From Gammaproteobacteria bacterium (lineage in GTDB: Bacteria; Pseudomonadota; Gammaproteobacteria; Eutrophobiales; Eutrophobiaceae), in NCBI GenBank assembly GCA_965202685.1, contig OZ241853.1, positions 27,381 to 91,380 on the forward strand: a DNA stretch of 64,000 nt, in the 5' to 3' direction. Under the pieces are notes generated by a model. The model was given only the letters and a program-made list of their open reading frames with translations, had not been told where the DNA came from and ran no database searches. The translations under genes and the position numbers were made by a program. Of this stretch, positions 15,176 to 20,189 are shown piece after piece; the stretch's first letter is position 1, and each line of letters starts with the position of its first letter.

Positions 15176-17659
15176 TCAGGCGGCAAGTTCGCCGTGTTCA
15201 TCTTTTATCATGCGCAACTTTTCGTGCGCGCTCCATTTGGCTTTTACGACCTCTTCGACCTGCTTTATTGCGGCTTTTCTTGTTTCAACCTGGGTGAACA
15301 GCGGCAGTTTCAGTTCCTTCCATCTGTCGCCGATATTCGGCAAGGTCGTTTCAATCAACACCTTGCTAAAAGACTGCATGGCCACCAGGCGGTGAGACAA
15401 CAGATACAGGAGATAATGAGGGGTCAACCCGCACTCGTTGCCTTTCTTAACTCTCAAAACCAAGATCTCCCTTGTCAACAACACCTCAAGATCATAAGGC
15501 GAAACCATCGCCACGCTGCCAATTCGGTAACTTCCGCGCCGGACATACAGAATATCTCCAGCTTGCAGGTTTTTTCCATCGCCTTTCATCTTCCTGTAAA
15601 TGTGTTCAGGCAAGCTTGAAGTGGGGTCTTTGTAGATTTCCCAGTTCACTATGTCTTTAACGCGGATGTATGGATACTCGCCCCTCCCCTTGTACACCGC
15701 CGGCGGCGAACCGTGCCCGTCGAAGAATTCAAGCGCGCCGTTAGCGACAAGTTCTCCGATAGACGCCAGTCGCAAGCGTTTTTTTCTTGCGATTTCCCGC
15801 ACTTCCTTGTCCCTCGTTTCCCAATAGTATCTCGGCACAAAGATCTTCCTGTTTTTCACATTCTTTGCGGAGACCGTGAAAACATGCTTGCGCCGCCGGG
15901 TCCTGCGCTCTTCCAGGATTAGCTCAATGTCATCCCACAACCGCTCGGGGTCAACCTGTTGCGTAACGGGATTCCAGCGGTGAATTGCCTTGCCTTGGTG
16001 GTCATGCCCCATTTCCTCCGCGACGGCGAAGTGGATGTTTTTTCCCTGCTTCACAGACTTCTGCAACACCACAACGATGCACTTTGCGTTGTTGTGGGGG
16101 CGGAAAGTGTTGTGCGGGAGATCGATGATCCATTGAATGTTGCATCGCTCCATGAACTGCATGACAAACCGCGCCTTTGGCGCGTGAAAAAATGTCTCCG
16201 GCAAAACAATGCCCATGACGCCTCCTTGCCTGAGCAATTGCAGGCTTCTTTCAATGAACAGGACCTCGGGGCGCATTTCCGTGTTTTTCCTGTCCGTTTG
16301 CTCGCACGCGGTCCCTTCTTTTCTCCATTTGCTTGCCAGGTCATATTGGGCAAGTTTTTCCCGTCCCACCACTTTTATGTCTTTGCCGAAGGGCGGGTTT
16401 GTCAACAAGACATCGAATTGGCCCAACTTAACGCCGTGGCGAGTTTTTTCTTTCCAGTTTTCCTGGGTTTCAAGGCTGTCTTCGCAAAAAATGCCGCTCT
16501 TGCCATCCCCGATAATGGTCATGTAGGCCTTCGCCACCTTGCTCAGAAATTCATCTTTTTCAACCCCCCGGATGCTCTTGACGGCTGTTTCCACTTTTTC
16601 TTTTTGCAGGGTTGCCGCGTCCCAACCGTATTCCGCCGCTTGCGCTTCCAACTGGCCCCACATGTTTTTCAGGGTTTCAATGAGAAACCCGCCTGAGCCG
16701 CAAGCCGGATCGATAACCAATTGCCCCGGCCGGGGGTTGATGATTTCAACCATGAGCCTGACCACATTCCGCGGCGTGAAAAATTGCCCCTGGCCTCCTT
16801 TCAGCGCATACCCTATGAAAGTTTCAAAGGCTTCCGCGATCACATCCCGTTCCGACTCGGTAAGACAGTAGTTCTGCAACTCGCCCACCAGGTAACTTAG
16901 CGATTTGTCATCGAGGCTTATTTTATCGCTAAAATCAATGACTTCCTCGTATTTTTCCTTGACTTTTTCAAACAGCGCCTCGATGCGAGCCGCCACCTCT
17001 CGCTCGCTCTCATTGAGGCCGGCGCGGAAAGAAACCATTTCCTCTTGCTTGGTGAATTTTTCATCGTAAATTTTGCAAAAAATGACATTGATCAGCTGTT
17101 GCGCCAACATTTCATCACGGGTCGCCCCGGTGGTGTTGCCAGCTAAATGATTTCTGATGGTCTTGAACACGGTCTTCAGGTTGTGGGGAATGGTCAAATC
17201 CTTTCTTTTGAATCTGCCAATGTCTTCCAAACGCTCGCCCTTTCTTGGGATGTTGGGTATTTCTGAGAACAGAACCTGGCCGTCTTTTTCATATTTCCGT
17301 ATGAACAGCCGCTGCTCGCCGTTGAACCAAACGCCCAATTTCGCCTTTGAAAAGCGCAGATAATCCTTGAGTTGCGCTAATCCGTCCTTTCTTGTTTTTC
17401 GCTTGCACTCGACAACGATAAACAAGGCGTCGTCCGTTTTGTCATCACTGTTGAACACGGCAATATCGATGGGATATTCCTTTTTCACATCTGACGGCCT
17501 GGCTTTCACGCGCCATTGCGGCCGCGTTTGCAGTTGCTCCTTGGCGTACCCGTAATCCTCCATCAGCGTTTTGGCAAAGACCTGGACCGCCTCGACTTCC
17601 TCAGGCGTGGCTCTCACGGTTTTGCCGCTGACGCAATCTTGAATCCAACCTTCTTGCAT
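15176..17659 (-). CDS. single-chain restriction-modification protein A: HsdR_N-type PD-(D/E)xK nuclease + gamma-class N6-adenine methyltransferase + one HsdS-like TRD
   Basis: Nuclease-like motif PIDIAVF...FIVVECKRK. MTase motif [13 protein letters not shown] and motif [10 protein letters not shown]. The C-terminal TRD has [17 protein letters not shown] followed by a terminal helix. ATG 17659 (MQEGWIQD) aligns with the paralog N-terminus. The track start at 17725 would overlap gene B. Confidence 0.8.
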
Positions 17660-17675
17660 GAATGCCCCGCCCCCG

Positions 17676-20189
17676 CTATTGCTGAGTGTGTTTTTCTCTA
17701 CGCCGCGCGCTTTTTGCTTCATCAAGGGCTTCTTCTCTCAAAGCGATGATTTCTCTTTCGATTTTTTCCCTCCCCGCCACTATCTGTTTCATCCTTTCCT
17801 TGATGCGGCTTCTTTTCTCACTGTCTCTATGCAACGGAAGATGAAGTTCACGCCAACGCCCTCCTATGTTAGGCAAAGTGGTGTCAATAAACACCTTGTT
17901 GTAAAGTTGTTGTTTAGTGAGCTCATGGGTGATCAGATAGGCCAAATAAAAGGCATCTATCTCATACTTGTTGTCAGCATCGATAATTCTGAACACAAGA
18001 CAGTGGCTATTCAACAATATCTCGGTGTCCGTAGGAAGAAGCACGGCTACATCGCCTACGCGATAACTTCCTTCTTTGACAAAGATTAAATCTCTCGCTC
18101 TTAACTCCACCCCCGTTCCTTTCACCTGCTGGTAAATATGCTCGGGAACTCCAGACACAGGATTCTTGTATATTGACAAATTGCCTATGTCGCCCGCTCT
18201 AACATAAGGCACATCGCCTAATCCTTTGTATTCTCCAGGAGGAGAGCCGTGTCCTTTGTGAACTTCCATGATGCCTTCCTCAACCAAGTTGCCCAATGGC
18301 AACCAGTCAATGTTTTCATCTTCTGAAAGATGATTCTCTCTCTTCCAATAATATCTTGGAACATAGATGTCGTTTTTTATTTCCGCGCGCTTTTTGCAAA
18401 AGACATGTTTGTTTTCGTTAGCGTCAGGACGACTTATTTCCTCCTGTATGCAGCGAGTGTCATCCCAGACTTCATCCGATATTTTGCCTTCCACGGGTTT
18501 CATCATGACCTTCCCTAAATGATTTTTTCCCATTTGTTCCGCGACGCCAAAAATGACATCTTTCTGCGGCGCGCCTTTCTCCAAAACAAGCAATAGGGTT
18601 TTTGCATTGCAATGTGGGCGGAAAGTGTTATGCGGCAGATCAATCACAGCCTTGATATTGTTGCCTTGTTGCATGTATTGAATAATGTGTTTTTTGGTCG
18701 GCGCGTGAAAATAGGTTTCCGGAAGCACAATGGCCAATCGTCCGCCTTCTTTCAGCATATCCAGACAGCGTTCGATAAAAAGCTCCTGAGGGGGCGTTTT
18801 CACCACCTTATCGGTCTTGATGAATTCTCCCTCTTCGCCTCGTTTCCACTTGTGTCCTAAATCAAATTGAGCGCACTCCGCCTCCAACACTTTTGTTTCT
18901 TTGCTTCCAAAGGGGGGATTAGTGAGGATAACATCGAATTTTTTGAATTGCTCAGTGTTTTCCACAAACAGGTTTTTCGCATTGCCGTCAAAATCTTCCG
19001 GGGCGTGAAGGGAATTTTGCTGAACGATGTTGCTGCCGCCATCTCCGATAATTGACATGTACGCCTTGGTGATCTTCACCAGATCAATTTCTTTGTCTAT
19101 CCCGCAGATGGTTTTTTTCGCCATCCTTCTCTTTTCCAATTCAAACTCGCCAGCGGGCATGTTTTTCCATTTTCTGTCTTCCCGCATCTGTTCCCAGATA
19201 TGACTGAGAGCGAAAATCAAAAATCCGCCACTGCCGCAGGCAGGATCGCATATCATCTCATCGGGCTTCGGATTGACAAGCCGCACCGCGATTTTCACAA
19301 TCTCTCTGGGGGTGAAAAACTCCCCCTTTTCACCCACCAGCTTGGATTCAGCAAACACTTCAAACGCATCGCCAACCACATCTTGATCCGCGCCGATCAG
19401 GGAATACATTTGCAGTTCGCCAACCACATAGGCAATCCCATTGTCATCCAAGGTGATCTGCTCTCCCCCTTCAAAAATGCCTTCAACTTCTAGATCCTTT
19501 TTGACATCATCAAACAAGCGCTTTACTTTTTGAGCAACGGCGGTCTTATCCTCGTTAGCGCCAATCCTGAATTTCGGGACGCCTTCCACATCGTAACGCT
19601 CGTCTTGCATCTTGCAAAACAACAGGCGGATCATTTCATTGCCCAGCTTTTCTCTGCGGCTGATGTTTGTGTTGGTGTAAAGGGTGTTAAGAATGCGCCG
19701 AAAGATGAGCTTCAAATTGCTCGCAGGCTTTAGCGAGGCCTTATTCTGCAAACTGCCTATATCTTCTATCGTTTCACCGCTTCTTGGTATTTGATAGATT
19801 GCATTGCGCTTGACTTCTCCTGAGGCATGATCCCGCCACAGGTATTCGATTTCCTCGCCGTTTGTCCACACGCCCCAGGCGCAGGAAGTCGCAGTCATGT
19901 AGCTAATTAACTGATTGATCCCGTCTTTTCTATCTTTTCTTTTAGCCTCGACAATTCCCCATACATCGGCGCCTTGCGCTCTCTTTTTTGCGTCTGTCGT
20001 TTTATAAACAACGAGGTCTGCTTTCTCTCTGCGCCGACTTCCTCGCTGCACCAGGACTTCAATATCCATCTGCTCCTTGAGGTAGCCATAATCATGGCAC
20101 AGGACTTTCTCATAATCCTGTCTCACCTGTTCCTCAGGAGTGTCTCTCACTGGCTTGTCTGTCGCCCAATCTTTCATGCCGCCCATCAC
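17676..20189 (-). CDS. single-chain restriction-modification protein B (paralog of A, same three-module architecture)
   Basis: ADLVVY...WGIVEAKRK; [12 protein letters not shown]; ILTNPPFG; shared blocks LPETYFHAP and [14 protein letters not shown]; TRD with TTLPNIGGRWRELHLPL followed by a helix. The true start is probably ATG 20177 (MKDWATD). It is the most AT-rich gene in the window by eye. Confidence 0.8.
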   Translation of the reverse strand: MMGGMKDWATDKPVRDTPEEQVRQDYEKVLCHDYGYLKEQMDIEVLVQRGSRRREKADLVVYKTTDAKKRAQGADVWGIVEAKRKDRKDGINQLISYMTATSCAWGVWTNGEEIEYLWRDHASGEVKRNAIYQIPRSGETIEDIGSLQNKASLKPASNLKLIFRRILNTLYTNTNISRREKLGNEMIRLLFCKMQDERYDVEGVPKFRIGANEDKTAVAQKVKRLFDDVKKDLEVEGIFEGGEQITLDDNGIAYVVGELQMYSLIGADQDVVGDAFEVFAESKLVGEKGEFFTPREIVKIAVRLVNPKPDEMICDPACGSGGFLIFALSHIWEQMREDRKWKNMPAGEFELEKRRMAKKTICGIDKEIDLVKITKAYMSIIGDGGSNIVQQNSLHAPEDFDGNAKNLFVENTEQFKKFDVILTNPPFGSKETKVLEAECAQFDLGHKWKRGEEGEFIKTDKVVKTPPQELFIERCLDMLKEGGRLAIVLPETYFHAPTKKHIIQYMQQGNNIKAVIDLPHNTFRPHCNAKTLLLVLEKGAPQKDVIFGVAEQMGKNHLGKVMMKPVEGKISDEVWDDTRCIQEEISRPDANENKHVFCKKRAEIKNDIYVPRYYWKRENHLSEDENIDWLPLGNLVEEGIMEVHKGHGSPPGEYKGLGDVPYVRAGDIGNLSIYKNPVSGVPEHIYQQVKGTGVELRARDLIFVKEGSYRVGDVAVLLPTDTEILLNSHCLVFRIIDADNKYEIDAFYLAYLITHELTKQQLYNKVFIDTTLPNIGGRWRELHLPLHRDSEKRSRIKERMKQIVAGREKIEREIIALREEALDEAKSARRREKHTQQ

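Follow-up and report, generated by a model that had tools for sequence, protein, structure and literature searches.

Gene organization of the locus

To characterize a candidate defense locus in a Gammaproteobacteria bacterium, we analyzed a 64,000-nucleotide (nt) stretch of its genome (GenBank assembly GCA_965202685.1, contig OZ241853.1, positions 27,381 to 91,380; hereafter, the window). Two long open reading frames (ORFs), genes A and B, are arranged head to tail on the minus strand between ispD (20627-21409) and serS (13851-15146), and each is predicted to encode a single-chain restriction-modification (R-M) enzyme in which the restriction, modification, and specificity parts are fused. Gene B spans 17676..20189 (minus strand, stop codon 17678-17676), and its ORF gives 837 amino acids (aa) from a GTG at 20189 and 833 aa from an ATG at 20177, with a further ATG at 20186. 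Gene A spans 15176..17659 (minus strand, stop codon 15178-15176) and encodes 827 aa from an ATG at 17659, within an ORF (15176..17725) that would give 849 aa from a TTG. The shorter starts, giving 827 aa for A and 833 aa for B, were favored because the homolog lengths match them at full coverage. An earlier note on this DNA, made by reading the sequence, had placed here two neighboring same-strand genes of about 827 and 833 aa, in agreement with the recovered ORFs and the homolog lengths; the gap that it gave as 17 nt measures 16 nt. This spacer (17660..17675, minus strand), which is purine-rich at GGGGGCGGGG ahead of the start codon of A, is conserved in the locus L004 from a relative of the window organism. 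Genes B and A are probably co-transcribed as an operon.

The region upstream of the pair, from ispD to gene B (20190..20626, minus strand), has no controller gene and contains only short ORFs without family matches. An extended -10-like element, TGGTAGAAT, lies in this region at 20368-20360 and is possibly the promoter, which is a guess; a scan of the locus for promoters and terminators returned counts at chance level. On the other side, the stop codon of gene A is located 29 nt from the serS start codon, and the spacer between them (15147-15175) contains a GGGGAGG ribosome-binding stretch. The minus strand showed no terminator-like site between gene A and serS, so that read-through from the acquired genes into the essential serS gene may occur. 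The neighboring genes at the locus are serS, pntAB, ispD, ftsB, eno, kdsA, and pyrG. Inspection of the ORFs between serS and ispD revealed no helicase, hsdS, or helix-turn-helix controller gene, as the earlier reading had held for a helicase or translocase, a separate hsdS, and a controller. A search for repeats at the flanks revealed neither direct nor inverted ones that would mark an integration site, and the direct repeats about 2.5 kb apart at the locus reflect the paralogy of A and B.

The base composition of the two genes differs from that of their surroundings. The GC content is 50.8% in gene A and 46.3% in gene B compared with approximately 59-71% in the flanks and 59-64% in the remainder of the window, and 500-nt windows lying wholly inside the two genes range from 44.8 to 52.6%. 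The GC content at third codon positions (GC3) is 63% in A and 52% in B compared with 76-81% in the host genes serS, ispD, and eno. Because both measures lie below those of the flanks and host genes, the locus is compositionally foreign. The locus had previously been described as AT-richer than its flanks, with an estimated 35-50% GC; the direction stands, and the estimate gives way to 46-51% for the genes. Horizontal acquisition, proposed at the same time, agrees with this foreign composition.

Nuclease and methylase domains

A full-length alignment of proteins A and B gives 40% identity (590 bits). They share one architecture, as had been suggested from their motifs, and are type IIB/IIG-like in kind. 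Pfam matches identify an HsdR_N-type nuclease domain in both chains (HSDR_N_2, 1.1e-13 in A and 4.8e-18 in B), together with a gamma-class N6-adenine methylase (N6_Mtase, 2.2e-33 in A and 8.7e-37 in B), and no Pfam helicase domain is present in either. In protein A, the nuclease domain covers residues 1-150 (17210..17659, minus strand; HSDR_N_2 at residues 26-137), with the RM subunit of BsaXI as its best Foldseek match, and holds the invariant PD-ExK residues D65 (17467-17465), E84 (17410-17408), and K86 (17404-17402). It is followed by a helical connector (residues 151-289) and the gamma-class N6-adenine methyltransferase (residues 290-545), which together occupy 16025..17209 (minus strand) and are delimited by the N6_Mtase match at residues 270-555 and by AlphaFold2 (AF2) modeling; motif I (DPACGSGGF) lies at residues 317-325 and motif IV (NPPFG) at residues 421-425. 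In protein B, the nuclease domain covers approximately residues 1-143 (19749..20177, minus strand; HSDR_N_2 at residues 14-122), and family alignments place its PD-ExK residues at D54 (20018-20016), E77 (19949-19947), and K79 (19943-19941). The gamma-class N6-adenine methyltransferase domain of B covers approximately residues 284-544 (18546..19328, minus strand; N6_Mtase at residues 264-553), with motif I (DPACGSGGF) at 19247-19221 and motif IV (NPPF) at 18920-18909, both invariant.

The family alignments indicated that the catalytic residues are intact in both proteins. D65/E84/K86 of A correspond to D54/E77/K79 of B, and an alignment of 239 family sequences shows at least 97% conservation of these residues and of DPACGSGGF and NPPFG. 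The same PD-ExK residues and the two methylase motifs are invariant in a 79-sequence alignment, and the B residues are invariant in 40 B-clade sequences. The view that the catalytic motifs are intact in both chains is thus borne out, all of the motifs quoted for it being present, and the possibility raised alongside it, that the nuclease residues are not conserved in the family, does not apply. In a sequence search of the PDB, protein A matched RM.BsaXI (9e-26) and the StySJI M protein (3.5e-17). The AF2 model of A (predicted local distance difference test [pLDDT] 87, predicted template modeling score [pTM] 0.81) has the RM subunit of BsaXI as its closest fold (Foldseek E ~1e-26), and other whole-chain matches include BpuSI (3s1s, E 5e-20) and CamA.

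These data bear on the reading of A and B as methylases only, that is, as orphan or regulatory enzymes, or as enzymes serving a methylation-associated defense system (MADS) or the nearby bacteriophage exclusion (BREX) system, with a nuclease-like domain that is inactive or structural. Public annotation calls such proteins merely "N-6 DNA methylase", a BREX type 3 system lies 8 kb away, and the best NCBIfam match of the two proteins is the MADS methyltransferase MAD2 (NF047738, E ~1e-110, residues 2-569). MAD2 is homologous to the nuclease-like, connector, and methylase parts of A and B, which also match mad2 in PADLOC (6e-52 and 1e-55). However, the MAD2 scores of 372 and 362 bits are about half of the family cut-off of 720 and far below it, and MAD2 lacks the C-terminal target recognition domain (TRD) that is fused in A and B. 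MADS is an eight-gene operon in which mad6-8 are mandatory (bioRxiv 10.1101/2023.03.30.534895); mad6-8 are absent here, where the flanks are the housekeeping genes serS and ispD, and membership in MADS was rejected on these grounds. The at least 97% conservation of the PD-ExK D, E, and K residues in the 239 family members also argues against a methylase-only role, as do the possession by BREX of its own methylase, PglXI, and the occurrence of the family gene alone or beside only an insertion sequence (IS) transposase in the examined loci. We therefore regard a methylase-only function as highly improbable.

Target recognition domain and terminal helix

Analysis of the C-terminal regions indicated that each chain carries one HsdS-like TRD followed by one terminal helix. 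At Pfam default thresholds, no TRD was detected in the C-terminal ~240 residues, and only a weak Methylase_S match was obtained for B (E=0.035). A C-terminal profile built from 18 family members matches TRD1 and the first conserved-region (CR) helix of the M. jannaschii HsdS (1yf2, E=1.5e-4). A separate AF2 model of the C-terminal region of A (pLDDT 89) matches 3okg, 1yf2, PacII S, and BsaXI S in Foldseek at E values from 3e-7 to 9e-6, and its best folds are mostly of the HsdS type (T. tengcongensis, M. jannaschii, PacII S, BsaXI S, MG438, EcoKI, and EcoR124I; 3e-7 to 1.6e-4). The TRD of A spans residues 636-788 (15296..15754, minus strand), as located by the profile match to 1yf2 TRD1-CR1 and by Foldseek. 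The C-terminal amphipathic helix of A, equivalent to the HsdS conserved-region helix, spans residues 789-827 (15179..15295, minus strand) in the AF2 models and aligns with 1yf2 CR1; it is continuous over residues 791-822 (~32 residues) and follows a single globular TRD. The TRD of B, approximately residues 630-782 and ending in TTLPNIGGRWRELHLPL (17832..18290, minus strand), was assigned from the weak Methylase_S match, its 50% identity to the TRD of A, and the match of the family profile to 1yf2. The C-terminal helix of B, also equivalent to the HsdS conserved-region helix, covers approximately residues 783-833 (17679..17831, minus strand) by alignment and clade consensus. The profile and structural matches thus agree with the earlier count of exactly one HsdS-like TRD and one terminal helix per chain. 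By analogy with HsdS and half-HsdS proteins, the terminal helix of A is presumed to be a dimerization element (PMC6158711, PMC3874165). B has a tail that exceeds that of A by approximately 10 aa and does not end in the KW...G.LTT usual in the family, and this divergent tail is also found in solitary B relatives.

Comparison of A and B by region revealed that the TRD is the most similar part (50% identity) and the terminal helix the least similar (13%), with 35% in the nuclease, 38% in the helical connector, 45% in the methylase, and 34% in the connector to the TRD. Among 60 clade-specific switches (positions conserved within the clades of A and B and different between them), the nuclease accounts for 21, the connector for 19, the methylase for 16, and the TRD for only four, all four being conservative changes. 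The picture drawn before, of shared catalytic parts and differing TRDs, is therefore reversed. Within each clade, the TRDs are also alike across phyla, with a mean identity to A or B of 58-71%. The TRD of such enzymes is normally hypervariable; in this family, no region is better conserved, and the terminal helix varies most. A few residues or the spacer length may determine specificity in the family. The spacer of Type I enzymes is set by how long the conserved region is. Since the TRDs of A and B are similar and their helices dissimilar, we speculate that the two enzymes may differ in the spacer length of their sites and not in the half-site.

Proteins of three other sizes contain modules related to the TRD and helix of A at 28-37% identity. 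Proteins of 480-500 aa with two matching stretches have the size of two-TRD S subunits (P0261, P0262, P0270, and P0278-P0280), stand-alone proteins of 240-290 aa have the size of half-S proteins (including P0283, P0293, P0297, and P0300, all of ~270 aa), and proteins of 640-710 aa have a size fitting M-S fusions without a nuclease (P0295, P0302, and P0308-P0312). Judged from protein length and the position of the match, one TRD-CR module may be used in several R-M architectures.

These features weigh on a reading of A and B as independent monomers, Type IIG-like (MmeI, BpuSI) or Type ISP-like, each of which would have a short, contiguous, asymmetric target, with methylation confined to one strand and cleavage to one side; dimerization would then be transient and serve cleavage only. 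A monomer would be consistent with the single TRD per chain, with the whole-chain Foldseek matches to BpuSI (3s1s, E 5e-20) and to CamA, a monomeric MTase-TRD enzyme, and with the weak Pfam MmeI_Mtase match of protein A (32 bits, residues 315-383). In contrast, the C-terminal domain resembles an HsdS TRD with its conserved-region helix and not the TRD of MmeI or BpuSI, and a monomer would have no evident use for an amphipathic terminal helix of ~32 residues. The TRD-CR module, which also occurs in the 480-500 aa S-like and 240-290 aa half-S proteins, is thereby tied to the dimeric HsdS system. We consider it rather unlikely that A and B act as monomers in this way, which is the main variant of the reading favored below.

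Homologs, clades, and solitary occurrence

To place A and B within their family, we compared them with homologs and their genomic neighborhoods. With 8,000 candidates scored in each search, more than 7900 homologs were obtained for A and more than 7800 for B, and both lists may hold members of either clade. The family ranges over bacteria and archaea. Identities across phyla beyond the lineage of the window reach 60-79% for A and 54-78% for B, and the A-clade hosts include Gammaproteobacteria, Bacteroidota, Campylobacterota, Spirochaetes, Saccharibacteria, Woesearchaeota, and others, with a similarly wide spread for the B clade. Public annotation labels the homologs only as "N-6 DNA methylase" or "type I restriction enzyme M protein". 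Each of A and B is closer to homologs in other phyla (up to 79% and 78%, respectively) than to the other, and no sequence in the alignment is intermediate between the two clades. A and B are thus not recent tandem duplicates, because they come from two anciently separated clades without intermediates; they were probably acquired separately and came to lie side by side. A scan of viral contigs with B returned no match, and a plasmid tblastn search returned only proteins labeled "N-6 DNA methylase", the best full-length match being 41% identical and none close.

Examination of 107 unrelated loci, comprising 24 A-clade and 83 B-clade loci (80 of the latter from metagenomes), revealed no second family member beside the family gene in any of them (0/107); the sequence extended for at least 500 nt on the partner side in 22 of the 24 loci of the A clade and in 54 of the 83 of the B clade. 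The solitary members include the nearest relatives of A (79%, 76%, and, in Cycloclasticus sp. P1, 74%), the other A-clade loci from reference genomes, and the nearest relatives of B (78%, 67%, and 62%). Three apparent doubles had other explanations: L052 contains an unrelated methylase, and L024 and L107 contain single genes broken by frameshifts, each seen as two adjacent tblastn pieces (L024, 3180-5664; L107, 4944-7423). The split genes are probably decaying copies, phase-varied copies, or assembly errors. The A and B pair was found only in L004 and L005, which come from close relatives of the window organism and have the pair at the same serS-ispD site, with A 95% and B 93% identical to the window genes. 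Comparison of the window with L004 gave dN/dS (nonsynonymous to synonymous substitution) ratios of 0.11 for A and 0.13 for B, with dS similar to that of the flanking housekeeping genes. Purifying selection together with this dS therefore indicates that the pair is old in the lineage and that both genes have been maintained.

In approximately 30 of the 107 unrelated loci, an ORF for a DDE transposase accompanies the single family gene at a distance of no more than 2.5 kb. The transposases are of the IS1595, DDE_Tnp_1, and IS240-like types, and their ORFs include L018 4667-5605, L028 54-815, L029 5061-6004, L035 4232-5107, L051 385-1302, L052 73-1185, and L061 936-2129, among others. This suggests that the ~830-aa R-M gene is often a one-gene IS cargo, self-contained and mobile on its own. 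In four B-clade loci, a 65-aa XRE-type helix-turn-helix ORF (MIAQNIKKYRKKKGISQDKLSKLAG...) lies just upstream of the R-M gene (L034 342-539, L040 549-746, L046 535-732, and L047 4771-4968), and may encode a controller for part of the family; the window has no XRE-type ORF of this kind.

The neighborhoods argue against the earlier proposal that A and B form a heterodimeric system. In such an enzyme, A and B would pair through their C-terminal helices and bring two TRDs onto one asymmetric bipartite site, either obligately or facultatively alongside the A2 and B2 homodimers. The two genes are same-strand neighbors with 16 nt between them and are probably co-transcribed; both are under purifying selection in two lineages; and they share an architecture with one TRD and one terminal helix each, a kind of helix through which half-HsdS proteins dimerize (PMC6158711, PMC3874165). 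There is also a precedent in PacII, an M1M2S enzyme in which two paralogous catalytic M subunits act on the halves of one asymmetric site (PMC9613975), the same logic as that proposed for an A:B enzyme. However, PacII has a conserved pair of M genes with one two-TRD S subunit, whereas A and B each have their own TRD and their pairing is not conserved. The co-occurrence of the clades, restricted to L004 and L005 with none in the 107 unrelated loci, failed to support the proposal: neither clade needs a partner, and the nearest relatives of both proteins are solitary. An obligate A:B enzyme is very unlikely because each clade occurs alone almost everywhere. The presumed dimerization helices share just 13% identity, one tail being about 10 residues longer than the other, and the divergent tail of B, being common to solitary B relatives, is not an adaptation to A. 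Since the TRDs are the most similar part of the two proteins, an A:B heterodimer would also gain little asymmetry. A literature search, with Hin4I included as a topic, found no precedent for a natural heterodimeric single-TRD Type IIB enzyme.

These data make an A:B heterodimer of either kind improbable. It is similarly doubtful that A2, B2, and A:B coexist in one cell, with A:B reading and protecting a third, asymmetric bipartite site. If true, such cross-dimers would be a new route by which stacked single-TRD R-M-S genes expand restriction specificity combinatorially. The data weigh against cross-dimerization as the purpose of the locus. The two-gene Type IIG locus of Prevotella intermedia 17F was considered as a model and rejected because its architecture is different, with proteins of ~1117 aa and 305 aa by the listed coordinates (PMC5608340). 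Its second gene gave no modified motif alone and added none on co-expression (PMC5608340).

Proposed mechanism and comparison with known systems

The findings above favor the alternative that the earlier note had left open, namely two independent stacked systems, given that each clade is solitary and that A and B come from separate clades. Each gene probably constitutes a complete R-M system, whose product would form a homodimer through the terminal helix, recognize its own symmetric bipartite target, methylate it in both half-sites, and cut outside it independently of a translocase. The domain content, the intact catalytic residues, the HsdS-like fold, purifying selection, the solitary clades, and the foreign composition are shown by the data; we infer homodimerization, site symmetry, double-sided cutting, and a difference in specificity between A and B. 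In the model, for which HaeIV, half-HsdS proteins, and BsaXI serve as precedents, each chain would pair with a second copy of itself via the C-terminal helices, and the pairing would set the two identical TRDs in inverted orientation. The dimer would then read a symmetric bipartite site and methylate one adenine per half-site, protecting the host, and cleavage of unmodified DNA would take place at set distances beyond the site and require no ATP-driven translocation. The DNA motifs against which A and B protect are probably different, either in their half-sites or in spacer length.

The arrangement has its closest counterpart in HaeIV from Haemophilus aegyptius, a Type IIB/IIC enzyme whose one polypeptide includes a lone specificity domain. 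As a homodimer, it recognizes the symmetric bipartite site GAY N5 RTC and cleaves the DNA to both sides of it (PMC3874165, Table 4; PMC4081073); HaeIV is denoted "2R~gammaM~[GAY]", and the arrangement is given in the literature as "2 x R~M~[TRD]". Like HaeIV, A and B combine an N-terminal nuclease, a gamma-class N6-adenine methylase, and a single specificity domain in one chain, and they have no separate M, S, or R gene or translocase. The locus differs from HaeIV in that two such genes from different clades stand in tandem. AloI, PpiI, TstI, and CjeI, in which a nuclease, a methylase, and an HsdS-like module also form one chain, recognize bipartite sites of the Type I kind (PMC4027205, PMC3874165). 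Their domain order of nuclease, methylase, and HsdS-like recognition module is that of A and B; in contrast, they are ~1250 aa long with TRD1-CR1-TRD2-CR2 and have asymmetric sites, whereas A and B have ~830 aa with one TRD and one CR helix. The closest solved structure to the nuclease, connector, and methylase of A is RM.BsaXI (sequence 9e-26, fold 1e-26), S.BsaXI matches the C-terminal domain of A (8.6e-6), and the BsaXI structure has "knob" and "paddle" elements (PMC11997821). In BsaXI and BcgI, which are (RM)2S enzymes, two TRDs reside in a separate S subunit; in A and B, the TRD is fused to the RM chain, with no S-like ORF between serS and ispD.

Half-HsdS proteins and M-half-S fusions provide the model for the dimer, since a TRD with its conserved helix dimerizes there and rebuilds an S-subunit-like core (PMC6158711, PMC2877798, PMC3874165). 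The site read by EcoR124I-NT, an engineered half-S enzyme, is bipartite and symmetric (PMC6158711, PMC2877798, PMC3874165), and M-half-S constructs of S. aureus CC398-1 act on sites predicted from TRD specificity (PMC6158711). A and B resemble these proteins, including the natural "Type 1 1/2" MTases, in having a single TRD and a conserved helix. Restriction in the half-HsdS systems needs the ATP-dependent translocase HsdR, whereas A and B carry an HsdR-N-type nuclease fused in cis. Likewise, classical Type I R-M systems have an HsdR with an SF2 translocase, whereas A, B, and their neighbors have no helicase domain.

Several points weigh against two independent homodimers. Restriction activity, oligomeric state, and recognition sites are predicted by inference for A and B and for their close homologs, and the likeness to HaeIV is one of architecture. 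Given the conservation of the TRD, 50% between A and B and 58-71% within clades, the two enzymes need not differ in specificity. A single HsdS-like TRD is also found in enzymes that act as monomers, namely Type ISP enzymes and CamA. Functional coupling of the two genes would also fit their tight 16-nt spacing and the fact that two lineages have kept both.

A and B are thus two more predicted single-chain R-M enzymes of known architecture, horizontally acquired and stacked, and their tandem is a lineage-specific stacking of two defense genes, not a new type of system. The family is of note for its size, for its one-gene modules often beside IS transposases, and for its unusually conserved recognition domain. 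The homologs found carry no characterized names, and thousands of genes would probably gain an annotation once the site of one member is determined.

Other features of the window

Part of a BREX type 3-like system occupies positions 1-8086 of the window on the minus strand, adjoining tRNA-Ser(tga) at 7997-8086. It comprises BrxF (7608-7114), BrxC/PglY with a DUF6079 domain (7237-3371), and PglXI (from 1528 to before position 1), of which the first 509 aa are contained before the gene runs off the window start, all on the minus strand. Between BrxC and PglXI lies a gene for a 623-aa protein (3386-1515, minus strand) with Schlafen AlbA_2, HATPase_c_4, and Fic-like_C domains. The presence of these BREX type 3-like genes indicates that the host holds a second methylation-based defense approximately 8 kb from A and B. 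Farther along the window, two large subtilase-family genes (35321-37966 and 38040-40961, minus strand) adjoin a gene for a 1356-aa Phage-tail_3 protein (41781-45851), and the whole region (35321-45851) may be the remnant of a prophage or tail-like element.

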